From Longimicrobiales bacterium (lineage in GTDB: Bacteria; Gemmatimonadota; Gemmatimonadetes; Longimicrobiales; Gaopeijiaceae): a stretch of DNA of 64,000 bases. Positions 2 to 55,467 of the stretch are shown piece by piece (the first letter of the stretch is position 1; every line of letters begins with the position of its first letter). The stretch spans positions 384,001 to 448,000 of the forward strand of contig CBDFMQ010000002.1 of the NCBI GenBank assembly GCA_965249725.1. Direction: 5' to 3'. Below the pieces are notes generated by a model, which saw only the letters and a list, made by a program, of their open reading frames with translations, did no database searches and was not told the DNA's origin. The position numbers and the translations under genes are program-made.

Positions 2-658
2 ACGACCCTGGCCGCTCTCGTCGACAAGATCAACAAGGAACGCAAGGGACACATCATTACGATCGAGGACCCGATCGAGTTCATCCATCGCCACCAGCAT
101 TGCATGGTGAACCAGAGGGAGGTGGGAGCGGATACCCAGAGCTTCACCGCCGCACTCAAGTACGCGCTGAGGCAGGATCCGGACACGATCCTCATCGGCG
201 AGATGCGGGATCTGGAAACGATCGGGGCGGCACTCACCATCGCAGAAACCGGCCACCTCGTGCTCGCCACCCTGCACACCAACTCGGCGGCCGAGTCGAT
301 CAACCGGATCATCGACGCCTTCCCGGCTCACCAGCAGGCTCAGGTGAGGGCGCAGTTGGCGTTCGTTCTCGAAGGTGTCGTCACGCAGACGCTCCTGCCG
401 AAGGCGAAGGGACGCGGAAGAGTCGCAGCCGCCGAGATCATGATCTGCACGGCGGCGATTCGGGCGGTGATTCGAGACGAGAAAATCCACCAGATCTACT
501 CGCTCATGCAGGCAGGGAAGAAGCACGGCATGCAGACGATGAACGACTCGCTGCAGGTGCTTTATATGCAGGGTACGATTACTCTGGAAGAAGCGCTGAA
601 GCGCTCGGGTGATCCGAACGAGTTGCTGCGTGCCGTTGGTGAGCCGGCGCCAGCATGA
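2..658 (+). CDS. pilT: Type IV pilus retraction ATPase PilT (5' truncated by window edge)
   Basis: The frame is open from base 2 (TTLAALVDKINKERKGHIITIEDPIEF). It contains LRQDPDTILIGEMRD, AETGHLVLATLHT, an AIRNLIRE-like AIRAVIRD and GMQTM. Confidence 0.95.
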   Translation, partial: TTLAALVDKINKERKGHIITIEDPIEFIHRHQHCMVNQREVGADTQSFTAALKYALRQDPDTILIGEMRDLETIGAALTIAETGHLVLATLHTNSAAESINRIIDAFPAHQQAQVRAQLAFVLEGVVTQTLLPKAKGRGRVAAAEIMICTAAIRAVIRDEKIHQIYSLMQAGKKHGMQTMNDSLQVLYMQGTITLEEALKRSGDPNELLRAVGEPAPA

Positions 659-40869: not shown

Positions 40870-41214
40870 CTACAGATCGAGGACGAGCTTCAAGCCTGCG
40901 TTGACATGGGCCATCAGCTCAGGAGTGATTCGCCCCGCTCGCTCCGAGAGATAGGCCTCGTCCAAGGCGACGATCTGCGTGACGTTGGCCACCGAGTCCT
41001 TGGTCAGGCCGCTTACTTTGGCCGGAAGAAGGACGTTGCCCGGAGCGTCCAGGAGTCGGGTGTTCGAGGTCAGGACGATGCCCAGAACGGTCCGTAGTCG
41101 GCTCCGGTTGAAGGAGTCTGCCTGCACTACCAGGAGGGGGCGACGAAAGCCCGGCTCCGAGCCACGGGGTGCATCGAGATCTGCCCACCACACCTCGCGG
41201 CGCAGTACTACCAC
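40870..41214 (-). CDS. mazF: PemK/MazF family toxin
   Basis: EVWWADL, GSEPGFRRPLLVVQADSFN, LTSN, APGNV, SGLTKDSVANVTQI. Confidence 0.9.
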   Translation of the reverse strand: MVVLRREVWWADLDAPRGSEPGFRRPLLVVQADSFNRSRLRTVLGIVLTSNTRLLDAPGNVLLPAKVSGLTKDSVANVTQIVALDEAYLSERAGRITPELMAHVNAGLKLVLDL

Positions 41215-41444
41215 TCGTCGGAACTCACACTTCTGGCCTGGGCGGTACGGAGCGTCGGGTCGATGCCGCTGGGTGCGTCCGCGAAGACATCGTTCAATCT
41301 GGAGGTAACGTCCTCGTCACGGTGCTTTGCCAGGTACTCGGCGACCGCCGTAGCGTAGAGCTTGCTTCTGGATAAGCCTAAGCGTTCTGCGAGGGCGTCG
41401 GCAGATGCGAAAAGGTCATCGGGGAGAGAGACGGCAGTTTTCAT
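41208..41444 (-). CDS. Ribbon-helix-helix antitoxin (ChpI/MazE-like)
   Basis: MKTAVSLPDDLF..ADALAERLGLSRSKLY; its stop overlaps the toxin start. Confidence 0.88.
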   Translation of the reverse strand: MKTAVSLPDDLFASADALAERLGLSRSKLYATAVAEYLAKHRDEDVTSRLNDVFADAPSGIDPTLRTAQARSVSSDEW

Positions 41445-41467
41445 ACTGGAAGTATACTACGGTATGA
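41441..41467 (-). promoter_or_regulatory. TA promoter/operator: -10 TATACT just upstream of the ATG, inside ATAC..GTAT inverted repeats
   Basis: The minus strand reads TCATAC-CGTA-GTATAC-TTCCA-GTATGA, and no Shine-Dalgarno sequence precedes the ATG. Confidence 0.6.
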
Positions 41468-41619
41468 CCAGTCACGACAACTCCCACCGAAGAGGCCAGG
41501 GGAGACCCCGAATTCCTTTGAATGCTAGCATATGCTCGCCCGCCCCACCCGAGTTCATGAGGCTCGGATAGGGCGGGCGTAGCCGGTCGCGACGGACAGG
41601 CTGTAGGGAGGACTCCCTG

Positions 41620-42072
41620 CTAGAGGGTCTGCTCGCGGATATCGAAGCTCGATGTCGAGGCATCACGCAGAGCCCGGAACACGACCACGGGCTGGCTGTC
41701 GCTCGAGAAGTGGATGTCGTCGGTCTGGAACGCCAGCCTCGCCTCACCGGCTGAGGCTGAGAGGAGCTCAGCTCCGGACCCGTCCGCCTCGAGATCGAGG
41801 TAATCGAAGCTCGAACGGTCCCAGGTCAGCACGACCTGGTATTCGCCCTCTCCCGCCAGCCGCTGACCCGAAATGGCCAGTTCCACCCGAACCATCTCAC
41901 CCGCTTCGGCCTGGGCGCTGGACACATAGAACGTGATTCCCTGGTCCGCCGACTGCACGGCGTCGGAGATACTCTCCGGCGCTATCACCGAGCTGTCGCA
42001 GGCCATCAATCCGGCCACCAGAGCCAATGCCATCGCACCCTGTCCGAGCCTTCTACCGTTCACGTTTTTCAT
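41620..42072 (-). CDS. Lipoprotein with cohesin-like beta-sandwich domain
   Basis: Lipobox GLMA|C; AGEMVRVELAI, YQVVLTWDRSSFDY, VVFRAL; RBS AGGAG. Confidence 0.6.
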   Translation of the reverse strand: MKNVNGRRLGQGAMALALVAGLMACDSSVIAPESISDAVQSADQGITFYVSSAQAEAGEMVRVELAISGQRLAGEGEYQVVLTWDRSSFDYLDLEADGSGAELLSASAGEARLAFQTDDIHFSSDSQPVVVFRALRDASTSSFDIREQTL

Positions 42073-42104
42073 GATGATCTCCTGGCAGGTGGAGCGGCGT
42101 CGTT

Positions 42105-42149
42105 GCCGTTCTCATACCACACACAGGAAACCGTGCACGGGCGTGCTCA
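42105..42149 (-). promoter_or_regulatory. Conserved promoter-like motif, copy 1
   Basis: Minus strand TGAGCAC-N11-GTTTCCTGTGTGTGGTATGAGAACGGC; matches 54752-54796. Confidence 0.7.
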
Positions 42150-42237
42150 TCGGAGTCGGCCTTTCGCCGTCGGAAGTGAGTCGCTATCCCTCAGACGCCC
42201 TCCCCAGGGGCAGACCGAGGGGGCTCTGTTGAGCGAT

Positions 42238-42801
42238 ATGGACACCATCTCGCTGCTGCGCATGGCAGCGACCGGCGACTTACATGCTCGGGATCAGGCG
42301 TGGGCCCGTGTATATGACGAAGTACTGGTCGTCGCTCGCGCCCAAAGACGCCGCTGGAGTGGCGACTGGACCATGGAGACCCGGGTCCTCGCCAACGAGG
42401 TCTTCATCAAGGTCTTTGGTGACAATCCCCCGGAACTGAAGGACCGAAAGCACTTCTTCACGTTGTTGGCGAAGGCCGTCCGGCAGATTCTGGTCAACTA
42501 CTCGGAGGCACGCCGCGCCGCGAAGAGGGGAGGAGGACAGGCTCAAGTCACACTGTCGGAGGCGGGCGGCCTGTCGCTCGAGCCCGAGGTGTCGGATCGG
42601 ATCCTGGACCTGCACTCCGCGCTCAAGCGCTTCGAGTCGTTGGACGCGCGAGCTGCACGCATCGTGGAGCTTCGTTTCTTCGCTGGGCTGAACTACGACG
42701 AGATCGCGTCCGCATTGGGAGTATCACGCGCCACCGCGGTGCGTGACTGGGAAGCGGCCAAGCTCTGGCTCCATCGTGAGATGGGCGGGGCACCGGCATG
42801 A
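42238..42801 (+). CDS. ECF sigma factor of the kinase-associated (TIGR02999-like) type
   Basis: VYDEVLVVARAQ, DRKHFF, RQILVN, RRAAKRGGG, IVELRFFAGL, EIASALGVSRATAVRDW. Confidence 0.9.
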   Translation: MDTISLLRMAATGDLHARDQAWARVYDEVLVVARAQRRRWSGDWTMETRVLANEVFIKVFGDNPPELKDRKHFFTLLAKAVRQILVNYSEARRAAKRGGGQAQVTLSEAGGLSLEPEVSDRILDLHSALKRFESLDARAARIVELRFFAGLNYDEIASALGVSRATAVRDWEAAKLWLHREMGGAPA

Positions 42802-43907
42802 CCTCCGACGAGGCGGCGTTGTGGCAGCGCGCCAGGGCCGTGCTTGAACTGACCCTCTCCCAGCCCGAAGATACGCGCCGTCGCTTCGTTCTCGAGACAT
42901 GCGACCAGGACCCGGAGCTGGTAACGGAGGTGCTATCGCTCCTCGAGTCCGAAGGTGGCTCGGAGACCTTCTTCGACCAGCTCGGTAGCGCCATCGACGA
43001 CGGCCTGGCCGGGGCAGAGGAGCCGGATCCTTGGTTGGGTCGATCTGTGGGCCCTTATCGGATTGTGGAGCTTCTCGGGCGAGGCGGGATGGGATCGGTA
43101 TACAAGGCCGAGCGGGAGGGAAGCTCGGGGGAGCCTCCTGTCGCGATCAAGATTCTCAGAAGCGAGTCGGAGCATCCAACCTCTCGCGAACGGTTCCTGC
43201 GTGAACGCGACAGACTTGCCGGACTCGACCATCCTTATATAGCCCGCATTCTGGATACCGGTGAGGGCGAATCAGGCGTCCCGTTCTACTGCATGGACCT
43301 CGTTGAAGGTGAGCGGATCGACCACTACGCGGATCGGCATCGCTTGAGCGTAGCACCGCGCATAAGGCTGATCCTCAAGGTGTGCGACGCCGTAGTCCAC
43401 GCCCACGCACGGCAAGTCATCCACCGAGATCTCAAGCCCTCGAACATTCTTGTTCGATCAACGGGCGAGCCGAGCCTGGTGGACTTCGGCATCGCCAAGC
43501 TCTTGGATCCCGTGACACAAGGTGACCCCACACTATCGTTGCAGGCGGCGGCCTACACTCCGGGTTATGCGAGTCCGGAGCACGTGGTAGGTGACTCCGT
43601 TTCTGCAGCCAGCGATGTCTATTCGCTGGGTGTGCTCCTCTACGTGGTCCTGGCGGGGGCGGAGCCTTCACTCAAGCGCAGTCTGGACCGGCAGTCACCC
43701 GCGGAGGTGCTACAGCTGAAGGGGGAAAAGGCGACGGCCCTGGCGGCGGCTCGTGCCGCGACCGTGGACGATTTGCTCGACACGTTCGAAGGAAGGCTCG
43801 GCGATGTGCTCTTGAAGGCTTGTCAGATGCGCCCCGAGCGGCGGTATCAGACGGTCGGTGAGTTGGTGCAGGCGCTGGAGAGCTACCTGGATTCCGTGAA
43901 AGACTAG
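42798..43907 (+). CDS. Hanks-type Ser/Thr kinase, ECF-coupled, kinase domain only
   Basis: N-terminal EVLSLL helical segment, LGRGGMGSVY, VAIK, HRDLKPSN, DFGIAK, TPGYASPE; no TM or TPR tail; ATGA overlap with the sigma gene. Confidence 0.9.
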   Translation: MTSDEAALWQRARAVLELTLSQPEDTRRRFVLETCDQDPELVTEVLSLLESEGGSETFFDQLGSAIDDGLAGAEEPDPWLGRSVGPYRIVELLGRGGMGSVYKAEREGSSGEPPVAIKILRSESEHPTSRERFLRERDRLAGLDHPYIARILDTGEGESGVPFYCMDLVEGERIDHYADRHRLSVAPRIRLILKVCDAVVHAHARQVIHRDLKPSNILVRSTGEPSLVDFGIAKLLDPVTQGDPTLSLQAAAYTPGYASPEHVVGDSVSAASDVYSLGVLLYVVLAGAEPSLKRSLDRQSPAEVLQLKGEKATALAAARAATVDDLLDTFEGRLGDVLLKACQMRPERRYQTVGELVQALESYLDSVKD

Positions 43908-43942
43908 TGGCAGCCCGCACACATTAGGCGCATGTTAAGGCG

Positions 43943-46366
43943 ATGTCTGATCCCGTTACCCGCCTGAACGCAGCCCTAGAAGGCCGCTACGCCATCGAGC
44001 GTGAGCTGGGCGAAGGCGGGATGGCTACGGTGTACCTGGCCAAGGACCTAAAGCACAACCGCAACGTCGCGCTCAAGGTGCTTAAGCCAGAGCTCGCGGC
44101 GGTAGTCGGCGCCAAGCGGTTTCTCGCCGAGATCGAGACCACCGCGAACCTCCAGCACCCCCACATCCTGCCGCTCTTCGATTCCGGCGAGGCAGATTCG
44201 TTCCTCTTCTATGCCATGCCGTACGTGGAGGGAGAGACCCTGCGGGAAAAGCTGGACCGCGAGCATCAGCTCTCCGTGGACGAGGCGGTCAGGCTCACGA
44301 CGAATATCGCTGAAGCCCTGGAGACCGCTCACGAACAAGGCGTCGTCCACAGGGACATCAAACCCGCCAACATCCTACTAAGCCGGGGTAGCCCCCTCGT
44401 CGCGGACTTCGGGATCGCCCTGGCGGTCAGTTCGTCGGGTGGCGATCGCCTGACCGAGACCGGCTTGTCCATGGGCACGCCCTACTACATGAGCCCCGAG
44501 CAGGCCGCTGGGGAGAGCCATGTCGACGCGCGCAGCGATATCTACTCGCTGGCGGCGATGCTCTACGAGATGCTGGCGGGTGAGCCGCCCTATACGGGCC
44601 GGACCGCACAGGTCATCCTGACCAAACGAATCACGCAACCGGTCCCGTCGGTGCGAGACATCAGGGATAAGGTGCCCGCGAGCATCGACGGGACGCTCAA
44701 GCAGGCCCTTTCCCCGGTACCTGCCGATCGGTTCTCTACGACCGGCGAGTTCATCTCCTCGCTGACGACGTTGGTGGTGAGCGAAGCGAAGAAACCACTT
44801 CCCTGGAAGCCGTGGGCGGCAGCGGGTGTCGCGGCGACCGTGGTGAGCGCCATCGGGATCGGACTCGCGCTCACCCGCTCCGGCGGTGTGGGTCCCGCAG
44901 GGGTAGATGGCCGCGTGGGGGAGGACGGCCAGTCAACCGCGGAAGGCACGGCAACGGTCGCCAGCCAGGCCGGTGCCCCCGTAGAGATCATCGATCCGAA
45001 CTCTATAGTCGTGCTGCCGTTTCTGGACCTGTCGGGCCAGGATCAAGAGTTCATGTCGGACGGCATTGCCGCAGAGCTACTCACCCTGCTCGCCCGGATC
45101 CCGGGCTTGAAAGTTCCCTCACGGACCAGCGCGTTTTCTTTCAAGGATAAGGATCTGACCATTCCGGAGATCGCCGCGCAGCTCGGCGTCGCCCACGTGC
45201 TGGAGGGCACGGTGCGGATGGCGGGCGACGTCGTTCACATTACTGCGACGTTGATCGATCCACGGTCCGACGAGCAGCTCTTCTCCGAGGACTACGACCG
45301 CCCGCTCGACGACATCTTCACGGTTCAGGACGAGATCGCGGCCAGGGTCGCGTCCGAGCTCAGGATTGAGTTGCTCGGTGAGCTACCGCGGCAGCGCGAG
45401 ACCGACCCTGAGGCGTACAGGCTGTTCCTGCAGGCGAGCCATATCGCCGACTTGGGGTTGGTGGAGAGCCTCGAGACAGCCATCCCAATGTTCGAACGTG
45501 TGCTCGAGATCGACCCTAATTACGCTCCGGCCTACGTTGAGCTCTCCGCTGCGTACCGTGATCGGGGCTACAATGGCCCACGGTCCTATGAGGAGGGTCT
45601 CCAGATGGCTGTCAGCGCGGCGGAGCGTGCCGTCTCTTTGGACCCCGACTTTGCCTACGCTCATGCGATCCTCGGATCGACCATGGCTATGGGTGGCGAC
45701 TGGGAAGGCTTGAGACACGTCGAGCGGGCACTCGAGCTGGCGCCCACTGACACGGAGGTCCTCATGTTAGTGGGAATCAACCTCTGGGCTCTGGATCGTA
45801 TGGAAGAAGCCATCTTGGCGTTTGAATACGTTACAGAGCTCGACCCCCTGTATGGGAATAATTTTTACAACCTCGGCAACGCCTACATGTTGGCGGGTCG
45901 TCATGAGGACGCGGCGGCGACGCTCCGCACGCTATTGGAGCTGAATCCGTCGGAGCCCGATGCGCCTGGCGACCTTGGCCTGGCGTTGCTAGGGATGGGT
46001 GAGCTTGACGAGGCCCTGGCAATCGCTGAGTCGGCGACGGACGCTATACGCCGCCTTCATCTCTCGGCGCTGGCCTATCATGCACTTGGGCGACAATCCG
46101 AGTTTGAGACTGCGTTTCAAGAACTGCGAGGGGGATGGGGCGAATCGTTCCCGACCGTCATCGCAAGCGTGTATGCCTACACGGGAGATGTAGACGCTGC
46201 CTTCGAAATCATCGACCAGGTGGAATCTCTGGACCCCACTACCATCTTCGATCCGCTTTTCGCCAATCTTCATGACGATCCGCGCTGGACGGCGTTCCGT
46301 GAAAGAACAGGCCAGTCCGAGGAAGAGCTCGCGGCGATTCAGTTCGAGGTCAGTCTGCCGGGGTAA
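43943..46366 (+). CDS. Ser/Thr kinase with TM, TolB_N-like domain and TPR repeats
   Basis: Kinase motifs HRDIKPAN, DFG, GTPYYMSPE; TM WAAAGVAATVVSAIGIGLAL; SIVVLPF, SRTSAFSFK, IFTVQDEIA; TPRs; LHDDPRW. Confidence 0.92.
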   Translation: MSDPVTRLNAALEGRYAIERELGEGGMATVYLAKDLKHNRNVALKVLKPELAAVVGAKRFLAEIETTANLQHPHILPLFDSGEADSFLFYAMPYVEGETLREKLDREHQLSVDEAVRLTTNIAEALETAHEQGVVHRDIKPANILLSRGSPLVADFGIALAVSSSGGDRLTETGLSMGTPYYMSPEQAAGESHVDARSDIYSLAAMLYEMLAGEPPYTGRTAQVILTKRITQPVPSVRDIRDKVPASIDGTLKQALSPVPADRFSTTGEFISSLTTLVVSEAKKPLPWKPWAAAGVAATVVSAIGIGLALTRSGGVGPAGVDGRVGEDGQSTAEGTATVASQAGAPVEIIDPNSIVVLPFLDLSGQDQEFMSDGIAAELLTLLARIPGLKVPSRTSAFSFKDKDLTIPEIAAQLGVAHVLEGTVRMAGDVVHITATLIDPRSDEQLFSEDYDRPLDDIFTVQDEIAARVASELRIELLGELPRQRETDPEAYRLFLQASHIADLGLVESLETAIPMFERVLEIDPNYAPAYVELSAAYRDRGYNGPRSYEEGLQMAVSAAERAVSLDPDFAYAHAILGSTMAMGGDWEGLRHVERALELAPTDTEVLMLVGINLWALDRMEEAILAFEYVTELDPLYGNNFYNLGNAYMLAGRHEDAAATLRTLLELNPSEPDAPGDLGLALLGMGELDEALAIAESATDAIRRLHLSALAYHALGRQSEFETAFQELRGGWGESFPTVIASVYAYTGDVDAAFEIIDQVESLDPTTIFDPLFANLHDDPRWTAFRERTGQSEEELAAIQFEVSLPG

Positions 46367-49149
46367 TGTCAGATCCCGTCGCCCGCCTAAACGCAGCCCT
46401 CCAAGGCCGCTACGCCATCGAGCGCGAGCTGGGTGAGGGCGGCATGGCCACCGTCTATCTGGCCGACGACATCAAGCACGAGCGCAAGGTCGCCCTCAAG
46501 GTCCTGAAGCCCGAACTAGCAGCCGTAGTCGGTGCCGAACGCTTCCTCGCCGAGATCAAGACCACCGCAAACCTGCAGCACCCCAATATCCTGCCGCTAT
46601 TCGATTCCGGCGAGGCGGACTCGTACGTCTTCTACGTGATGCCCTACGTGGAAGGGGAGAGCCTTCGGGACAAGCTCGACCGCGAGCACCAGCTCCCCGT
46701 GGACGAGGCGGTCCGGATCGCGAGCGAGGTCGCCGAGGCCCTCCAGGCCGCGCACGAGCAGGGCGTCGTCCACCGCGACATCAAGCCTGCCAACATCCTA
46801 CTCAGCCGGGGTCGCCCGCTCCTAGCAGACTTCGGGATCGCGCTTGCCGTGAGCTCGGCAGGGGGCACCCGCCTCACCGAGACGGGGCTCAGCGTCGGCA
46901 CACCACACTACATGAGCCCCGAGCAGGCGGTGGGCGACCGGACCACGGGACCGTCCACGGACATCTATGCCCTGGGCTGCGTGCTCTACGAGACGCTGGT
47001 CGGAGAGGCTCCGTACACCGGCACCACGGCGCAGGCGATTTTGGGCCGGATCATCACCGGTGAGCCGGTATCGGCCACGAAGCACCGGCCGTCAGTGCCG
47101 GCCAACGTGGACGCGGCAGTCAGGAAGGCGCTGGAGAAGCTGCCGGCAGATCGCTTCGGCAGTGCCCAGGGCTTGGTGCAGGCTTTGGCCGACCCCGGCT
47201 TCCGGCACACGGTGGTGGGTGGGGACGAGCCTGCCGAGGTGGAGCCACGCCCACTCTCGCGTAGGGCCCTCCCTTGGGGGCTCACGGCGGTACTCGCGGT
47301 CACGCTGGTGGTCCTCACCTCGAGACCACCGGTGCAACCAGCGCCCGAAGTCGTGCGTTTCACCGTACCGATTGCGCAGGGTGACACGACCTACCTGGGT
47401 GGCCCATTCACCTGGAACTGGGGGGTGCCCGTTAGCACGTCCGTCGCGATGTCGCCGGCCGGGGACCTACTGGTCTATGCGGCGCGGGGCGGACCAGATG
47501 CCCCGCTGACGGACGGACGGCTTTATTCGCGCCGATTCGATCAGGACGTCGCCGAGCCGATCGCGGGAACGGAGGGGGCCCAAAGTCCGTTCTTTTCGCC
47601 GGACGGTGCCTGGATCGGCTTTTTCGTCGAGGCGTCGCTGAAACGAGTCTCCATGGTTGACGGTACGCTCGAGACGATCGTAGCGGAGGCTCCACTCGGG
47701 GAAGGCAACCCGTCTGGTGACCCTGGCAGCGGACCTTCCTTAGGCGCGACCTGGGGAGACGACGGAACGATCGTGTTCAGCGGCGCGGGTCTTCTGTACC
47801 GGGTCGCGGCCACTGGGGGAGAACCCGAGTTGTTCGCCGAGGGGCTCCTGCCCGGCGCCGGGGATTCTGTATTCTATCGCCGCCCCGAGATCCTACCGGG
47901 AAGCCAGGCAATCCTGCTGCAAGCCATCCCATCCCAATCCCGCGATCCCGAAGACGCCGAGATCGTTGCGCTGGACCTCGCCGGGGGCACGCGGAGGACC
48001 GTGCTGACCGACGCCATGGACCCGCGCTACGTGCAGACGGGACATCTGCTATTCGTGCGCCAGGGGACACTCATGGCGGTCCGGTTCGATCCGAACCGTC
48101 TCGAGGTGCAGGGCCAGCCCGTGATCATGATCGAGGATGTCATGCACGCGGTGCTCATGCCCAATGGCCAGTCTGAGACCCACGCCGCTCAGGTAGCCGT
48201 ATCGGGGTCCGGTCACCTGGCCTATGCCCGCGGCGGTATTTTTCCAGAGGAGCGCAATCGTGTGGTGCGCATCACGAGTGCGGGCGACACGGTTCCCCTC
48301 GAGACGGACGGTCGTGACTATCTGAGCCTTATGGTGTCCCCCGACGGAAGCCGGCTCGCCTTCATGGCCTTCGAAGGATCAGGCTTACGGCTCGGCGTCC
48401 ACGACCTAGGTCGTGGTGTGACCCAACTCCTGAACGGTCTCTCCGACGAGCACCCCATTTGGAGCCCTGATGGCCAATCGCTGGCAGTTTATTCAAACGA
48501 TGACGGGCACATGTATCGCCGCGCGGCGGACGGCAGCGGCGAGCCGGAGCGGTTGGCGCCCTCGGACAGAAGTCAGTACCCGTCTTCGTGGTCCTCCCAA
48601 GGGGTCATCGCGTTTCTGAGCGAAGAATCGCCGGAGTCTGGTGAATCGGATATCTGGCTGCTGCCGCCGGGCGAGGAGCCTGCGCCCTTTTTCACATCAG
48701 GGTCGGTGGAGTGGGGACCGACTTTTTCCCCGGACGGCCGGTGGCTCGCGTATTCGTCTGACGAAAGCGGGCGGCGGGAGGTTTACGTACGACCGTACCC
48801 GGGGCCGGAACCTGCAACGCAGATCTCCGGCGATGGCGGATTGAACGCGGCGTGGTCGCCCGATGGTCGGCAGATCTACTACGTACAAGATATGGAGGGG
48901 CCCCGACCCTGGGTCCTGATGTCTGTAGATGTGACCCCTGGCGATGAGCTTCAGGCGGGTCGCCCGGTGCCGCTCATCGATTCCTGGATCTTCGGAATGC
49001 AAGGAGTGCGAGGCTATGACGTCTTCCCTGACGGCTCGTTTGCCACGTACACGGCGGACATTCGCCCTTATCTAGAGCAGCACGGGGTTACCGAGCTGCA
49101 CGTCGTGCTCAACTGGTTCGAGGAGTTGAAGGAGCGGGTGGGGAATTGA
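46366..49149 (+). CDS. Ser/Thr kinase with TM and PD40/TolB-like beta-propeller sensor (copy A)
   Basis: Kinase domain, TM LPWGLTAVLAVTLVVL, repeated FSPDG/WSPDG blades, VVLNWFEELK C-terminus. Confidence 0.93.
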   Translation: MSDPVARLNAALQGRYAIERELGEGGMATVYLADDIKHERKVALKVLKPELAAVVGAERFLAEIKTTANLQHPNILPLFDSGEADSYVFYVMPYVEGESLRDKLDREHQLPVDEAVRIASEVAEALQAAHEQGVVHRDIKPANILLSRGRPLLADFGIALAVSSAGGTRLTETGLSVGTPHYMSPEQAVGDRTTGPSTDIYALGCVLYETLVGEAPYTGTTAQAILGRIITGEPVSATKHRPSVPANVDAAVRKALEKLPADRFGSAQGLVQALADPGFRHTVVGGDEPAEVEPRPLSRRALPWGLTAVLAVTLVVLTSRPPVQPAPEVVRFTVPIAQGDTTYLGGPFTWNWGVPVSTSVAMSPAGDLLVYAARGGPDAPLTDGRLYSRRFDQDVAEPIAGTEGAQSPFFSPDGAWIGFFVEASLKRVSMVDGTLETIVAEAPLGEGNPSGDPGSGPSLGATWGDDGTIVFSGAGLLYRVAATGGEPELFAEGLLPGAGDSVFYRRPEILPGSQAILLQAIPSQSRDPEDAEIVALDLAGGTRRTVLTDAMDPRYVQTGHLLFVRQGTLMAVRFDPNRLEVQGQPVIMIEDVMHAVLMPNGQSETHAAQVAVSGSGHLAYARGGIFPEERNRVVRITSAGDTVPLETDGRDYLSLMVSPDGSRLAFMAFEGSGLRLGVHDLGRGVTQLLNGLSDEHPIWSPDGQSLAVYSNDDGHMYRRAADGSGEPERLAPSDRSQYPSSWSSQGVIAFLSEESPESGESDIWLLPPGEEPAPFFTSGSVEWGPTFSPDGRWLAYSSDESGRREVYVRPYPGPEPATQISGDGGLNAAWSPDGRQIYYVQDMEGPRPWVLMSVDVTPGDELQAGRPVPLIDSWIFGMQGVRGYDVFPDGSFATYTADIRPYLEQHGVTELHVVLNWFEELKERVGN

Positions 49150-51923
49150 TGACAGATCCCGTCAGCCGCCTAAACGCAGCCCTAGAAGGCCGCTACGCCA
49201 TCGAGCGCGAGCTGGGCGAGGGCGGCATGGCCACCGTCTACCTGGCCGATGACCTCAAGCACGAACGTAAGGTCGCCCTCAAGGTCCTGAAGCCCGAGCT
49301 GGCCGCCGTGGTTGGAGCCAGGCGCTTCCTCGGCGAGATCAAGACCACCGCCAACCTGCAGCATCCGAACATCCTGCCGCTCTTCGATTCCGGGGAAGCC
49401 GACTCGTACGTCTTCTACGTGATGCCCTACGTGGAGGGAGAGAGCCTGCGGGACAAGCTCGACCGTGACCACCAGCTCCCCGTGGACGAAGCGGTCCGGA
49501 TCGCGAGCGAAGTCGCCGAGGCCCTCCAGGCTGCCCACGAGCAGGGCGTCGTCCACCGTGACATCAAGCCCGCCAACATCCTGCTCAGCCGGGGCCGCCC
49601 GCTCGTCGCCGACTTCGGGATCGCGCTGGCCGTGAGCTCGGCGGGGGGCACCCGCATTACCGAGACGGGACTGAGCGTCGGCACGCCCCACTACATGAGC
49701 CCAGAGCAGGCCGTGGGCGACCCGACCACGGGACCCTCCACGGATATCTACGCCCTGGGCTGCGTGCTCTACGAGACGCTGGTCGGAGAGGCTCCGTACA
49801 CGGGTACCACCGCACAAGCGATTCTGGGCCGGATCATCACGGGTGAGCCGGTATCGGCTACCAAGCACCGGCCGTCGGTGCCGGCCAACGTGGACGCGGC
49901 AGTCAGGAAGGCTCTGGAAAAACTGCCGGCAGATCGCTTCGGCAGCGCCCAAGGCTTGGCGCAGGCTCTGGCCGACCCCGGCTTCCGGCACACGGTGGTG
50001 GGTGGGGACGAGCCTGCCGAGGTGGAGCCACGCCCACTCTGGCGTAGGGCCCTCCCTTGGGGGCTCACGGCGGGACTCGCGGTCACGCTGGTGGTCCTCA
50101 CATCGAGACCACCGGTGCAACCAGCGCCCGAAGTCGTGCGTTTCACCGTACCGATTGCGCAGGGTGACACGACTTACCTGGGTGGCCCATTCGCCTCGGC
50201 CTGGGGGGTGCCCGTTAGCACATCGGTAGCAATTTCGCCGGCCGGGGACCTACTGGTCTATGCGGCGCGGGGTGGACCCGACGCCCCGGAGACGGACGGA
50301 CGGCTTTATTCGCGCCGATTCGATCAGGACGTCGCCGAAGTGATCGCAGGAACGGAAGGGGCCCAAAGTCCGTTCTTTTCGCCGGACGGTGCCTGGATCG
50401 GCTTTTTCGTCGGGACCTCGTTGAAACGAGTCTCCATGGTTGACGGTACGCTCGAGACGATCGTAGCGGAGGCTCCACTCGGGGAGCTCGAAACTGGTAG
50501 TGGACCTCCCTTGGGGGCGACCTGGGGAGACGACGGAACGATCGTGTTCAGCGGCGCGGGGACTCTGTACAGGGTCGCGGCCACTGGTGGCGAACCCGAA
50601 TTGCTCGCCGAGGAGCTCCTGCCCGGCGCCGGGGATTCTGTATTCTATCGCCGCCCCGAGATCCTACCGGGAAGCCAGGCAATCCTGCTGCAAGCCAACT
50701 CATCCCAATCCCTCGATCCCGAAGACGCCGAGATCGTTGCGCTGGACCTCGCCGGGGGCGCACGGAAAACGGTGCTGACCAACGCCATGGACCCGCGCTA
50801 CGTGCTGACGGGACATCTACTATTCGTGCGCCAGGGCACACTCATGGCTGTCCGGTTCGACCCGGACCGTCTCGAGGTGCAGGGCCAACCGGTGATCATG
50901 GTCGAGGATGTCATGCACGCGGTGTTCATGCTTAACACCCGTAGCGAGACTCAAGCCGCTCAGGTCGCCGTGTCGTCGTCCGGTCACCTGGTCTATGCCC
51001 GCGGCGGTACCTTTCCGGCGGCGCGTACTAGTGTGGTGCGCATCACGAGTGCGGGCGACACCGTTCCCCTCGAGATGGACGTTCGTCACTATATCAACCT
51101 TAAGGTGTCCCCCGACGGAAGCCGGCTGGCCTTCATGGCCAGGGAAGGATCAGCCTTCCCGCTCGGTGTCCACGACCTAAGCCGAGGCGTGACCCAACTC
51201 CTGAACGGTGTCTCCGACATAAATCCGATTTGGAGCCCTGATGGCCAATCGCTGGCAGTTGTTTCAATCGATGACTACAACATGTATCGCCGCGTAGCGG
51301 ACGGCAGCGGCGAGCCGGAGCGGTTGGCGCCCTCGGACAGAAGTCAGTACCCGTCTTCGTGGTCCTCCCAAGGGGTCATCGCATATGTGAGCGAAGAATC
51401 GCCGGAGTCTAGAGAACACGATATCTGGCTGTTGCCGCCGGGCGGTGAAGCTGCGCCTTTCTTCACATCAGGGTCTGAGGTTATGGGCCCGACGTTTTCC
51501 CCGGACGGCCGGTGGCTCGCGTATGAGTCTGACGAAAGCGGGCGGTTCGAGGTTTACGTACGACCGTACCCGGGTCCGGAACCTGCAACGCAGATCTCCG
51601 GCGGCGGCGGAACGAACGCGGCATGGTCACCCGATGGTCGGCAGATTTACTACGTACAATGGCCTGAGGACTCGCCCCCACCGGGGGTCCTGATGTCTGT
51701 AGATGTGACCCCCGGGGATGAGTTTCAGGCGGGTCGCCCGGTGCCGTTCATCGATTCCTGGGTCGTCGCAACGAGTCCAGTGCGAGGCTATGACGTCTTC
51801 CCCGATGGCTCGTTTGCCACGCTCGTGGTGGACGATCGTCCCTATCTCGAGCAGAACGGGGTTACCGAGGTGCATGTCGTCCTCAACTGGTTCGAGGAGT
51901 TGAAGGAGCGGGTGGGGAACTAG
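49149..51923 (+). CDS. Ser/Thr kinase with TM and PD40/TolB-like beta-propeller sensor (copy B)
   Basis: Collinear near-duplicate of 46366..49149; TGATG overlap. Confidence 0.93.
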   Translation: MTDPVSRLNAALEGRYAIERELGEGGMATVYLADDLKHERKVALKVLKPELAAVVGARRFLGEIKTTANLQHPNILPLFDSGEADSYVFYVMPYVEGESLRDKLDRDHQLPVDEAVRIASEVAEALQAAHEQGVVHRDIKPANILLSRGRPLVADFGIALAVSSAGGTRITETGLSVGTPHYMSPEQAVGDPTTGPSTDIYALGCVLYETLVGEAPYTGTTAQAILGRIITGEPVSATKHRPSVPANVDAAVRKALEKLPADRFGSAQGLAQALADPGFRHTVVGGDEPAEVEPRPLWRRALPWGLTAGLAVTLVVLTSRPPVQPAPEVVRFTVPIAQGDTTYLGGPFASAWGVPVSTSVAISPAGDLLVYAARGGPDAPETDGRLYSRRFDQDVAEVIAGTEGAQSPFFSPDGAWIGFFVGTSLKRVSMVDGTLETIVAEAPLGELETGSGPPLGATWGDDGTIVFSGAGTLYRVAATGGEPELLAEELLPGAGDSVFYRRPEILPGSQAILLQANSSQSLDPEDAEIVALDLAGGARKTVLTNAMDPRYVLTGHLLFVRQGTLMAVRFDPDRLEVQGQPVIMVEDVMHAVFMLNTRSETQAAQVAVSSSGHLVYARGGTFPAARTSVVRITSAGDTVPLEMDVRHYINLKVSPDGSRLAFMAREGSAFPLGVHDLSRGVTQLLNGVSDINPIWSPDGQSLAVVSIDDYNMYRRVADGSGEPERLAPSDRSQYPSSWSSQGVIAYVSEESPESREHDIWLLPPGGEAAPFFTSGSEVMGPTFSPDGRWLAYESDESGRFEVYVRPYPGPEPATQISGGGGTNAAWSPDGRQIYYVQWPEDSPPPGVLMSVDVTPGDEFQAGRPVPFIDSWVVATSPVRGYDVFPDGSFATLVVDDRPYLEQNGVTEVHVVLNWFEELKERVGN

Positions 51924-51931
51924 GCAGACCC

Positions 51932-54632
51932 CTACCGAATCGTCACCCCGATCTCCGCCTGTCGCTTGTGGAACGCGAGCGAGGACACCCCGAACGTCGG
52001 CTGATCCAGAACGGTCCCCATCCCAGCTGGATCGAAGTTCGTCCGATTCAGGAGGTTGTAGACGCTGAACTGTACGCCGGCTGTTCGGCCGTCTGCGACG
52101 TCGAAATTCCAGCCCAGTCTCATGTCGACACGTAGGAAGTTCGGACCTTCGTGGCCGTTTCTGGGCTCTCCTGGAGGACGGTCTGCATTAATGCCGTCCC
52201 TGTTCAAGTCGTCGACGACGATGGCCGTGTAAGGCCGACCGGAGGAGTACACGAGTTTCCCCGACACCGAGAGGCCGAACGGATAGTCGAACCCCCCGGT
52301 AGCGACGATGCGGTGCCTCTCGTCCCACGCCGCTCGTCCTTTGAGACCCGAGAAGTCCGTCACCTCGGGGTCGAGCGGGCCTTGAATGAAGTCGTTCCAG
52401 GCATCGCTCGTGTTCTGGCGATCCGCGAGGGTGTAAGCGAGGGTCATCCAGCCGCGATCGAGAGTCTTACTCGCCTGCATCATCAGGAGCTTGGCGTCCG
52501 CCTCGCCTTCGGTGAGCATCTGAAACAGATCCCCGTGGTCGGGATACTTCCGGACCTCATAGTCGGCGTCCCACGTGTTCAGGGATCGCTCCATCGGGAT
52601 GTTCCGGCCTTGAATCACCAGGCCGTCGACACGAAGCACGACTCCGCCCGTCACCTCCTGCTCAAATCCGAGCGAAAACTGCCTCGTCATGGGGGTCTTG
52701 AGTTCAGCGGCATTGGGCCAGTGGAGCTCGCCGAAGAAGAGGGGATTGTCCCGAAGCAGCTCGTCCACGTTGAGCGAGGCGGGTTCGGGGATCCCACCAA
52801 ACAAGAAGGCGCCGGAATGGGACTCCAGGCCGTCGCCTAGCGAATGCTGCGGCAGGGCGTCGTAAAAGATGCCGAATCCGCCACGGATCACCGTGCTACC
52901 ATCCTCCGCCGCATCCCAGGCAAAACCGAGTCTCGGCCCGATGTTGTTCTTGTCGACGGGGCGTGGTGTAGTGCGAATGAACGGAAGTTGTCCCGCCAGG
53001 GGCGACACGTACCCCTGGTTCGTTCCGTTGGTCTCGATCTCGTAGCGTAAGCCGATGTTCAGGGTCAGCGACGGCGTGGGATTCCATTCGTCCTGGGCGA
53101 ACACCGCTACTTGGGTATTCTGCGACACCGTGCCGATCAGTCCGGATCCCACAAGTGCGAACTCGGGGTCCACGGCTTCATCGGAGGGAAAGAAGAAGAG
53201 GCCGTCTTCAAGGATGTGGTATCGGGCGTGGTTGTCCTGCCAGCTTACCTGTGTCCCAAGCTTGATGCGGTGCGTCCCCGAGGCACCGGTCGCGACGAAC
53301 GACAGGTCCTCGATCAGTTCGATCCGAGTGTAGTTCGTCGGGCCCCACTCCGGAACCGGTCCGACGCAGATGGATGGATAACAAAGTGTTGGACCAGCAT
53401 CCGCGATCCGACCTTCATTGAAGTTTCGGTGGATCACGTGGAACCGCGCCTGGTTCACCATCCCGCCACCCAGAGACCACCGATGCGTGAGCAGAGCACC
53501 GTGCAGATCCGATGAGAGCAAGAGGCCTGTCGATGGGCTGGCCGGGGGGTCGTCCGCACCGACTCCGACAACCTTCTCCGCGATCTCGCCGGTGTATCGC
53601 AGGCTCAATTCGTGGGTGTCGCTGATCCTGTGATCCAGGCGCGCGAACATCAGATTGTCGGTGAACGGCGTCTTGAAGGTCCCGTTGACCCCGGGTATTG
53701 GGCTGGCCGTGTTGATGGTGGCGAAGTTGTTCTCCACCTTCCGTTCCATGGCCATGAAGAAGTGCGTTCGGTCCTGAGCAATCGGACCGCCGACGGCGAA
53801 GCCCCAGTGCGAACGGCTGAAGTCCGGTTTCGTTTCTTCGAAATGGCCGAGGGCCGTCATCTGGCGGCCTCGGAAGAGCCCGAAAGCCTCGATCTCAAAC
53901 TCGTTCGTACCCCGACGGGTGACGGCGTTGACGACGCCGGATGCCGTCCGCCCCAGCTCCGCGGAATAGGACGTCTGGATGACCTCGAACTCCTGAATGG
54001 CGAGTAGAGGTACTCCGCCGGTCACGTCCCCGAACGCCGGCTCAGTAAAGTCGCCACCGTCCACGAGCACACCCATGGATTGAGCGTTCAACGCTCCGAC
54101 GGAGATTTCGGTGCCGAGGTTCGTGTACCCTACGCCCGGCCCGGTGGTCGCGCCGGGCGCGAGGGCCGCGAGGTCAATGAAGCTGCGGGACTCCTCGGGG
54201 AGGCGTTGGATCATCTCTTGATCCATCGCGAACGCAACGTCGGCGTCGGTGGAGGCGACCAGAGTGCGGGGAGCCAGGACCCGAATACCCTCCAACTCGA
54301 GGGCGCTGACAGCGACGGTGAAGTCCAGTGTCAGCGTCTTGCCGATCGGGAGCGCGACGTCCTCTTGGGCGGTCGATTCCAAGCCGATGCGGCTTGCGAG
54401 AATGTCGTAGCGCCCCGGGGGGAGCCCGGTCAGCCAATATCGTCCCGTCGGCGTCGTTGCCGCCTCATACCGGAAGCCGGTGGCCACGTTGGTCGCGGTG
54501 ATCTCCACAGCGGACAGCTTCGGAGTCTTGTACCACGCCCGTGAGTTCTGCTGTGGCGGTTTGGCCGAGGGCTGGGATGCTGGTGGCTGCCAGCAGCAAA
54601 GAGACCGCTAGAATGGGTCGTAACTGACGCAT
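51932..54632 (-). pseudogene. Oar-like TonB-dependent receptor with an N-terminal frameshift (pseudogene or sequence error)
   Basis: The signal peptide MRQLRPILAVSLLLAATSIPALGQ starts at 54632 but is out of frame with the main ORF (VEITATN.., 54508-51932). That ORF carries a carboxypeptidase-regulatory-like domain, plug (AIQEFEV, YSAELG, GVVNAVTRRGTN) and barrel (FAQDEW, NIGPRLGFAWD). Confidence 0.8.
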
Positions 54633-54751
54633 GGCGGGATTCCTTTTTTAGGTGGTTTCCACTGCGGGGTGGAAACCGTTGTGTCTAGGGTGTGCGGCTC
54701 CGGTGGGGATAGCAAGAAAGCTACGTTCTCTGCGACGACTCAGATCCCATC

Positions 54752-54796
54752 GCCGTCCCCATATCACACACAGGAAACGGGGTAGGGGAGTGCTCA
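54752..54796 (-). promoter_or_regulatory. Conserved promoter-like motif, copy 2
   Basis: Minus strand TGAGCAC-N11-GTTTCCTGTGTGTGATATGGGGACGGC; matches 42105-42149. Confidence 0.7.
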
Positions 54797-54870
54797 CGGC
54801 CGTATAGCGTGCCCTCTTTCGGCCCAACTCGCCCGTGGCACTCCGCGCACACTAGGGACATTTTGAAGCG

Positions 54871-55467
54871 ATGCCCGATCCCCGATTGCTAGATACCGAG
54901 CTTCGCGAAGAGCCGCTGACCAGTCTGGCTGCACATGCCGAGATCTCCATCGCCTTTCAGGGGGACCGCGTCCTGATCCCCAGCACCGAGCCAGGAGGTC
55001 TCGAGGCACTGACTCTCGTGGAGGTCCTCCAAGAGCCTCCCTATATGAATGACTATGATGCCATCCCCGGGAACGACCCACTGGACTGGCCTCGCCGCTT
55101 CGATACATCCGGTTGGGCTCTGATCTCGGCGTGGCTTGGCGGCGAGCGGGTTGGTGGCGTCGTCATCGCTTACTCGACCGAGGGTGTCGATATGCTCGAA
55201 GGCCGCTTGGACCTCGCCGTGCTCTGGGACTTCCGCGTGGCGCCTGAAGTGCGCGGCACCGGGGTAGGGGCGGCACTCTTCGAGGCCAGCGAGGAATGGG
55301 CGCGAAGCAGGGGCTGCATCGAGCTGAAGGTGGAGACGCAGAACATCAATGTGCCCGCCTGCACGTTCTACGAGAGGCAGGGCTGCGAGCTGCGCGCGAT
55401 CGATCGATTCGCCTACCCAGACGTACCCGACGAGATTCAACTACTCTGGTACAAACGGCTTACTTAA
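54871..55467 (+). CDS. GNAT acetyltransferase, streptothricin acetyltransferase (Sat)-like
   Basis: VAPEVRGTGVGAAL acetyl-CoA motif, KVETQNINVPACTFY, LLWYKRL. Confidence 0.8.
   Translation: MPDPRLLDTELREEPLTSLAAHAEISIAFQGDRVLIPSTEPGGLEALTLVEVLQEPPYMNDYDAIPGNDPLDWPRRFDTSGWALISAWLGGERVGGVVIAYSTEGVDMLEGRLDLAVLWDFRVAPEVRGTGVGAALFEASEEWARSRGCIELKVETQNINVPACTFYERQGCELRAIDRFAYPDVPDEIQLLWYKRLT

Follow-up and report, generated by a model that had tools for sequence, protein, structure and literature searches.

Tandem receptor-type kinases of a Longimicrobiales bacterium differ mainly on one face of a predicted double-propeller sensor

The window analysed here, a 64,000-nucleotide stretch of a Longimicrobiales genome (contig CBDFMQ010000002.1), contains two adjacent open reading frames (ORFs) on the same strand, genes A and B, the start of B overlapping the stop of A. 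The pair and its parts, in window positions, are as follows.

46366..49149, + strand: gene A, 927 amino acids; Ser/Thr kinase, hydrophobic segment and predicted double six-bladed propeller
49149..51923, + strand: gene B, 924 amino acids from the ATG at 49149; tandem paralogue of A
46411..47172, + strand: residues 16-269 of A, the kinase domain; Gly loop and VALK, HRD and DFG motifs present
47266..47319, + strand: the one predicted membrane-spanning segment of A, at roughly residues 301-318, following two Arg
47353..48243, + strand: most of predicted propeller 1 of A; discontinuous, with its closing strand near the C-terminus
48244..49065, + strand: predicted propeller 2 of A; TolB-like, placed in a BC loop of propeller 1

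Both kinases score well above the curated Pfam Pkinase cut-off of 31.7 (168.6 and 164.5 bits), with the Gly loop, Lys, HRD and DFG catalytic motifs intact, and PD40 exceeds its cut-off in both proteins (80.9 bits in A). By hydropathy only, a single hydrophobic segment sits between kinase and sensor: the 19-residue Kyte-Doolittle peak is 1.86 in A and 1.62 in B, against at most 1.07 within the two propeller regions. By these sequence tests, A and B are Hanks-type receptor Ser/Thr kinases, and the layout points to an N-in/C-out topology with a putatively periplasmic propeller sensor. No NACHT or NB-ARC NTPase family of Pfam was found in A or B. Scores for the TolB equivalog model TIGR02800 were 74.1 and 72.3 bits, against a cut-off of 343.15.

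Residues 326-927 of A were modelled with AlphaFold2 from a 117-row alignment (pLDDT 93.3, pTM 0.91), and the model contains 12 four-stranded blades. Foldseek alone gave matches with a TM-score of about 0.3 only. Structural search resolves the model into two six-bladed propellers, one TolB-like and one discontinuous. Propeller 1 matches the sensor of Mycobacterium tuberculosis (Mtb) PknD, 1rwi (Z 20.2, root-mean-square deviation (rmsd) 3.0, 239 aligned, model range 6..598), and propeller 2 matches 2ojh (Z 28.3, rmsd 2.6, 255 aligned, model range 302..575) and TolB itself, 1c5k (Z 26.5). A single 12-bladed ring was rejected, because each half of the model aligns with six-bladed structures at an rmsd of 2.6-3.0. 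The strand order suggests that propeller 2 is inserted in a BC loop of propeller 1, in which case both inter-propeller linkers would exit from top faces.

A and B are identical in 822 of 928 alignment columns, and all eight of the differing loop peptide pairs quoted by the first-pass annotation, which had described two near-identical genes, were found. As protein, the kinases are 96% identical and the propellers 85%. The kinase region differs at 11 of 280 positions, the linker and transmembrane segment at 2 of 45, and the propeller at 88 of 598 aligned codons, plus 5 gap codons. The near-identity of the kinases holds for the protein but not for the DNA. By the NG86 method, synonymous divergence (dS) in the kinase is 0.35, above the 0.19 of the propeller; nonsynonymous divergence (dN) is 0.021 and 0.096, giving dN/dS of 0.06 and 0.50 (bootstrap 0.37-0.69), respectively. 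Propeller substitutions are strongly clustered (41 neighbouring pairs versus 23.8 expected; 0 of 10000 shuffles as high) and synonymous changes weakly so (p 0.016). The changes extend over about 1.7 kilobases, unlike the target of a diversity-generating retroelement, which is typically one short variable repeat.

We assigned blade faces from DSSP strand midpoints alone, the DA and BC segments forming the top and the AB and CD segments the bottom. Changed propeller codons number 74 of 329 on the top face versus 14 of 247 on the bottom (p 9e-9), a contrast that persists without the two inter-propeller linkers (top 62/295, p 2e-7). Synonymous-only changes are even (32 top versus 31 bottom, p 0.89; dS 0.19 versus 0.20), and face-wide dN/dS is 0.82 at the top and 0.15 at the bottom. 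The contrast is also present when only loops are counted (45/192 top versus 8/116 bottom, p 1.5e-4) and is therefore not merely one of loop versus core. The earlier proposal that the variable sites map to one face was thus borne out by blade topology on the predicted propellers, with 74 of 88 changes at the top. Its description of short variable loops needs amending: the substitutions do cluster, but 29 of the 74 top-face changes lie in strand top ends outside loops, and it is the top-face loops that vary while those of the bottom face are conserved.

The largest share of changes falls on the top of propeller 2 (38 of 129 codons, dN 0.224, dS 0.131), the bottom of which has 8 changes in 131 codons. 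Propeller 1 has 24 changes in 166 top codons and 6 in 116 bottom codons, and the linkers have 12 in 34. Equivalent blade positions were hit repeatedly, one of them in 7 of the 12 blades (p 0.015 overall; p 0.08 in propeller 2 alone).

Codon models were custom-scripted in the MG94 framework, comparing M2a with M1a and with further neutral nulls. For the propeller, M2a was better than M1a (twice the log-likelihood difference 34.5), with about 8% of sites at dN/dS of about 13; for the kinase region it was not better. Against a null allowing multinucleotide changes, which the kinase data do not need, the margin was 10.4, or 7.2 when indel flanks were removed, and a null in which divergence follows a two-state mosaic left a margin of 9.8 (p 0.007). 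The positive-selection site model thus beats three neutral nulls at p 3e-8 to 0.03 in a comparison of two sequences only, and its signal is confined to the top face (32.4 versus 1.4 for the bottom). WD40 proteins have top-face binding hotspots, R1, R1-2 and D-1 (PMC3419727; this and the other papers cited are represented by excerpts). By motif analogy, these match three of the recurrently changed blade positions, and we equated 18 codons of propeller 2 with them; 11 differ between A and B. The proportion of nonsynonymous differences at these codons (pN 0.45) exceeds the synonymous proportion (pS) of both the propeller (0.17, p 5e-5) and the kinase (0.28, p 0.02).

As controls, we examined six best-hit pairs between this genome (G000) and two same-genus genomes, together with one Acidobacteriota pair; their orthology rests on best hits, not full synteny. 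In all six same-genus pairs and the Acidobacteriota pair, top-face dN/dS was 0.08-0.27, near the bottom-face values, and none of the seven had an M2a signal. Seven other within-genome pairs gave top-face dN/dS of 0.52, 0.46, 0.30, 0.28, 0.26, 0.23 and 0.23. Pooled, these pairs have changes in 49 of 100 hotspot codons versus 48 of 177 in 12 cross-genome pairs, while bottom-face divergence is equal (18% and 17%). A rank test of eight paralogue versus 11 cross-genome pairs gave p 0.003 for top-face dN/dS (0.007 without A/B) and p 0.055 for the bottom face; the pairs share ancestry, making these p values optimistic, and the G000/G014 pair was excluded for saturated top-face dS. Since within-genome pairs are raised at the hotspots and only one of these seven has an M2a signal, top-face divergence is linked to duplication but episodic. 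A/B is the extreme case of this duplication-tied divergence.

Part of the stretch is contained in 20 listed runs of 10 studies, none listed as RNA, and 13 of the runs contain half or more; we examined four (X2, X3, X5 and X9), each from a different study. All four yielded A-specific and B-specific contigs at a depth similar to that of the upstream gene, and in three assemblies, the window's included, A-type and B-type proteins are recorded on contigs of equal length (5467737, 805531 and, for the window, 2960749). The first-pass annotation had named strain alleles mis-assembled into a tandem as a possible flaw; A and B would then be two alleles of a single gene. The genome is probably metagenome-assembled and, among the contig pieces listed, none spans the whole tandem, but with both copies recovered in four runs of four studies and a dS of 0.2-0.35, far above allelic differences, this explanation is almost certainly wrong and the tandem is real. 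Where contigs of the four runs cover the variable regions, those listed differ at 0-1 positions, although contigs drop rare variants. Alleles are 1-3 residues apart, database cluster members lie at most three residues from the window proteins before any break, and no homologue falls between 85% and 62% identity. Population hypervariability, for which a check had been suggested, was therefore not found in the contigs of four runs or in database alleles.

Other strains carry disrupted or altered copies, at the sites listed here with the kinase gene that lies upstream of A.

49009, + strand: nonsense variant in A at codon 882, in another strain (run X9); P0122 ends at residue 881
51675..51679, + strand: run of five C in B, one base missing in X2, X3 and X5, not X9; frameshift, 847-amino-acid product
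50273..50290, + strand: A-type tract in B of other strains; five A-type letters within 18 bases in X2 and X5
43943..46366, + strand: upstream kinase with TPR domain, 807 amino acids; its stop overlaps the start of A

The frameshifted B product shares its C-terminus with P0126 and P0127, and the TPR kinase has a nonsense variant at 45711 in three of the four examined runs (X2, X3 and X5). Database proteins match both broken states, P0126/P0127 for B and P0122/P0123, beside an intact P0002, for A. Loss is reciprocal among conspecific strains: B and the TPR kinase are broken in three runs and A in one, and the strain of the window is intact. Other assemblies have further interruptions of B near codons 628, 677 and 816. 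B is interrupted at CTAG (51028-51031; P0124, P0125 and P0127) and near CTAA (51177-51180; P0126), which suggests insertion sequences with a YTAR-like target. Such a target is the preference of IS5. The DNA interrupting B in other strains has no match in G000.

The duplication, the domain content, the face-specific amino acid divergence over even synonymous divergence and the orthologue controls are direct observations. We consider it reasonably probable that, in these tandem duplicates, selection after duplication retuned the ligand specificity of the predicted periplasmic sensor while the kinase stayed fixed; the substitutions would be concentrated on the top face because of this retuning. 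Several points weigh against this reading. The selection tests rest on two sequences and custom-scripted codon models. Diversifying selection, as first proposed for the variable regions, fits a subset of sites on a top face whose dN/dS is raised where that of the bottom is not, but the top-face mean of 0.82 is not above 1. For the top of propeller 2, dN/dS is 1.70 with local dS, an excess over 1 that is not significant (p 0.02-0.22 by choice of dS; 0.96-0.99 versus kinase dS), and if kinase dS is taken as the clock, nothing but the 18-codon hotspot set remains above neutral. The hotspot codons were chosen after the blade table was seen, and over all 12 blades the hotspots are weaker (14/36; p 0.025 versus propeller pS, 0.61 versus kinase pS). 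The dS mosaic described below (p 0.006) means that conversion can inflate dN/dS. Only one of the seven other paralogue pairs reaches M2a p<0.05 (0.016, with high dS), and the youngest pairs (in genome G038, at 90% and 81%) have a top-face dN/dS of 0.23 and no acceleration. Finally, as other strains broke A or B, neither copy is under firm retention now.

Some of these points would also be expected under relaxed constraint, with a redundant ligand face drifting neutrally, the fold constrained and one copy heading for loss. Broken copies in other strains and a top-face dN/dS near 1 favour this explanation, as does the finding that A and B differ at the columns that vary most across the family (entropy 2.74 versus 1.80). 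Divergence is also symmetric: derived states in B/A number 18/20, 24/24 and 28/35, and a single accelerated copy was rejected on these grounds. We nevertheless regard relaxed constraint as unlikely, given that a model with dN/dS >1 beats all three neutral nulls, that 38 of the 88 changed propeller codons differ at two or three bases, that bottom-face loops stay conserved (dN/dS 0.24), and that equivalent blade positions changed recurrently.

Conversion between the copies offers another route to the pattern. Synonymous divergence is a mosaic along the gene, with pS of 0.28 in the kinase and 0.035 in the linker and transmembrane segment (p 0.006). Acquisition of either kinase from another paralogue was considered and rejected, as the two are 91% identical in DNA to each other and at most 80% to any other. 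Because they are each other's closest relatives, conversion in other parts of the gene is probably the better explanation of the high dS in the kinase. In the tract at 50273..50290, all five letters match A and P0124 carries E381L; it is likely a gene-conversion tract in other strains. The duplicates could therefore be older and homogenised by conversion, with top-face differences that are old and were kept by selection blocking conversion. Such a history would still require divergent function, but no accelerated substitution. It accounts for the mosaic, the polymorphic tract and the proximity of synonymous to nonsynonymous changes (33 versus 24 expected, p 0.011), and the same pattern has been described for opsins (PMC3924837). 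It does not readily account for equal dS on the two faces, for dS being lowest on the most diverged face (0.13, top of propeller 2), or for a selection signal that survives the mosaic-rate null, and we judge it improbable.

In G000, 22 genes encode a full-length kinase-propeller protein in which both HRD and DFG are present, and 19 of these reach a hydropathy peak of 1.5. At the C-terminus of most of the 22, the closing strand of propeller 1 is followed by a conserved strand and a short acidic helix (F-x-EEL-like). Among 21 of the genes, median identity is 78% in the kinase versus 36% in the propeller, and one pair has kinases 97% and propellers 32% identical. Three members, at C2:308380-311010, C3:955371-958187 and C3:2834242-2836926 (L102, L106 and L114), have kinases 93-97% and propellers 32-37% identical. 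The clade of the three most similar kinases is rejected by the propeller data (approximately unbiased test, p-AU 9e-5). Kinases and sensors have therefore been reshuffled, or kinases homogenised. Such kinase-sensor swapping in the 22-gene family, like gene conversion and reciprocal loss in other strains, is part of what was observed.

Family matches in relatives number 27 in G011, 20 in G014 and 15 in G038, with none in G012 and G034. In G038, a genome of the same taxonomic order, seven members (L167, L168, L170, L172, L173, L175 and L179) form a tandem array at C5:2682-22214, the two closest pairs lacking top-face acceleration; in G002 many members (L009, L011, L015-L020) are split by frameshifts or stops, reflecting decay or assembly errors. 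Close orthologues at E 1e-60, among the best 32 candidates per genome, were absent from 39 of 40 relatives, the remaining one having a match at 37% identity. Of 77 GTDB loci, 59 are from Acidobacteriota and six from Gemmatimonadota. Among loci with a named source, kinases of Gemmatimonadota match best (63% and 61%) and those of other phyla reach 45% or less, which is weak evidence that the organism belongs to that phylum.

Related propellers are also fused to TIR, winged-helix or BTAD outputs: among 14 selected homologues, three have an N-terminal TIR domain and five Trans_reg_C, one of these with BTAD. The double-propeller fusions to TIR, Trans_reg_C and BTAD are P0080, P0085 and P0156, and P0014, P0051, P0073, P0093 and P0118; TIR fusion forms are named from Pseudomonadales metagenome-assembled genomes.

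The first-pass annotation had compared the pair to immune receptors, and the 22 paralogues with near-constant kinases and diverse propellers, the TIR fusions, and a surface under selection like that of fungal NLR WD repeats (PMC4986451) would suit an immune-like repertoire that keeps diversifying, its arms-race opponents being molecules of phages, hosts or competitors. We give this little credence. Orthologues conserve the top face, the two recent G038 pairs lack acceleration, alleles are nearly invariant over the variable regions in the four runs, and the identity gap from 62% to 85% is empty; as to standing variation, the proposal is largely refuted. No PADLOC family matched the two propellers, and defence-kinase models score the kinases far below cut-off. 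Among 78 neighbouring proteins scanned, the paralogues had no shared neighbourhood, the neighbours being mixed metabolic and housekeeping proteins. A search for phage carriage gave a single weak match (27%) in 50,697 records.

Upstream, the pair belongs to a same-strand cluster in the order ECF sigma factor, short kinase, TPR kinase, A and B. Its first two genes are as follows.

42241..42801, + strand: sigma factor of the extracytoplasmic function (ECF) type, heading the cluster; PF07638 133 bits, TIGR02999 145.2 versus a cut-off of 126.15
42798..43907, + strand: short Ser/Thr kinase, 369 amino acids; no other Pfam domain; overlaps the sigma-factor stop

The ECF-kinase cluster is absent from the hslU-gcvT interval in both same-genus genomes (G001 and G002). 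This interval (40870-55467 in the window) is a variable site, with a PemK-type toxin, the ECF-kinase cluster, a TonB-dependent receptor (51932-54508, minus strand, possibly 5'-truncated) and a GNAT gene here; it is nearly empty in G001 and holds other cargo in G002. Divergent from the ECF gene, a 150-amino-acid ORF at 41620-42072 on the minus strand has a lipoprotein-like N-terminus and no Pfam or NCBIfam match.

Most likely, A and B would be single-pass receptor kinases with a ligand binding to the propeller top face, and to propeller 2, the TolB-like one, above all. The top faces of TolB and WD40 proteins, taken as analogues, make a peptide or a protein surface the likeliest ligand class. 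Binding would drive dimerisation and then autophosphorylation, as proposed for other bacterial receptor kinases. Output could pass through the adjacent ECF sigma factor, a candidate substrate, or through other cytoplasmic substrates; ECF factors activated by kinases are known. After duplication, selection would have changed the binding face in both copies, their specificities later being fixed and copies often lost. The family behaves as a birth-and-death sensor repertoire: duplication gives rise to new specificities, which then stay constant and frequently disappear. A broader proposal is speculative, and we hold it with considerable doubt: a modular pattern-recognition repertoire of Gemmatimonadota and Acidobacteriota, a counterpart of plant receptor-like kinases, might detect host, phage or competitor proteins, the top face of its double TolB-like propeller sensor being re-specified by positive selection at each duplication and the sensor swapped among kinase, TIR, winged-helix and BTAD outputs.

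Few bacterial receptor Ser/Thr kinases have a known ligand, and expansions of these kinases have mostly been counted and seldom tested for adaptive change. A and B form a natural experiment, near-identical scaffolds differing at about 11 hotspot residues of one propeller; the pair points to a binding surface and allows a swap test for specificity. The family is large, and TIR and transcription-factor outputs make use of its sensor too; identifying a single ligand would give access to signalling that is widespread in two abundant phyla with few cultured members.

We found no literature on this family or on selection in it, most subscription papers lying outside the search. The kinase-transmembrane-propeller layout is that of Mtb PknD (PDB 1RWI), whose sensor propeller 1 matches. 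For PknD, a ligand has been proposed to bind the propeller 'cup' and activation by dimers has been described (PMC3601408). PknD, however, is a single gene with one symmetric six-bladed propeller, whereas A and B have 12 blades in two divergent propellers, one apparently inserted in the other, and belong to a 22-gene family. In Planctomycetota, single-pass kinases whose propellers are predicted to be periplasmic have undergone lineage-specific expansion (PMC11032199); these WD40/TPR receptor kinases resemble the A/B family in both respects, and PkwA of Thermomonospora curvata gives a match (5yzv, E 2e-9). Highly repetitive prokaryotic WD40 proteins have diverse hotspot residues (PMC5587647). 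Unlike the Planctomycetota kinases and PkwA, the A/B family has PD40/TolB-type blades that are not highly repetitive and comes for the most part from Acidobacteriota and Gemmatimonadota (65 of 77 loci); the excerpts on Planctomycetota and PkwA contain no dN/dS test.

In fungal HNWD/NLR proteins such as het-e, positive selection acts on a few positions of each repeat, at the interaction surface of the propeller, and gene conversion accompanies it (PMC4986451). A versus B, two sequences only, is likewise consistent with selection on a propeller interaction face. The fungal receptors are cytoplasmic NTPases whose alleles are hypervariable and whose repeats are almost identical, whereas A and B have no NTPase, dissimilar blades and nearly invariant alleles. 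In its workings the A/B family resembles a set of diversifying receptors, but not an immune-type locus with hypervariable alleles. TolB is the best fold match of propeller 2 (2ojh, 1c5k), but in A and B this propeller is fused to a kinase and a second propeller and scores far below the TIGR02800 cut-off. According to these excerpts, the layout is thus known from PknD, PkwA and Planctomycetota kinases, and propeller-face selection from fungal NLRs. As far as the literature searched shows, the double inserted propeller sensor, the evidence, backed by controls, for adaptive divergence of one face, the output swapping and the reciprocal loss are new.

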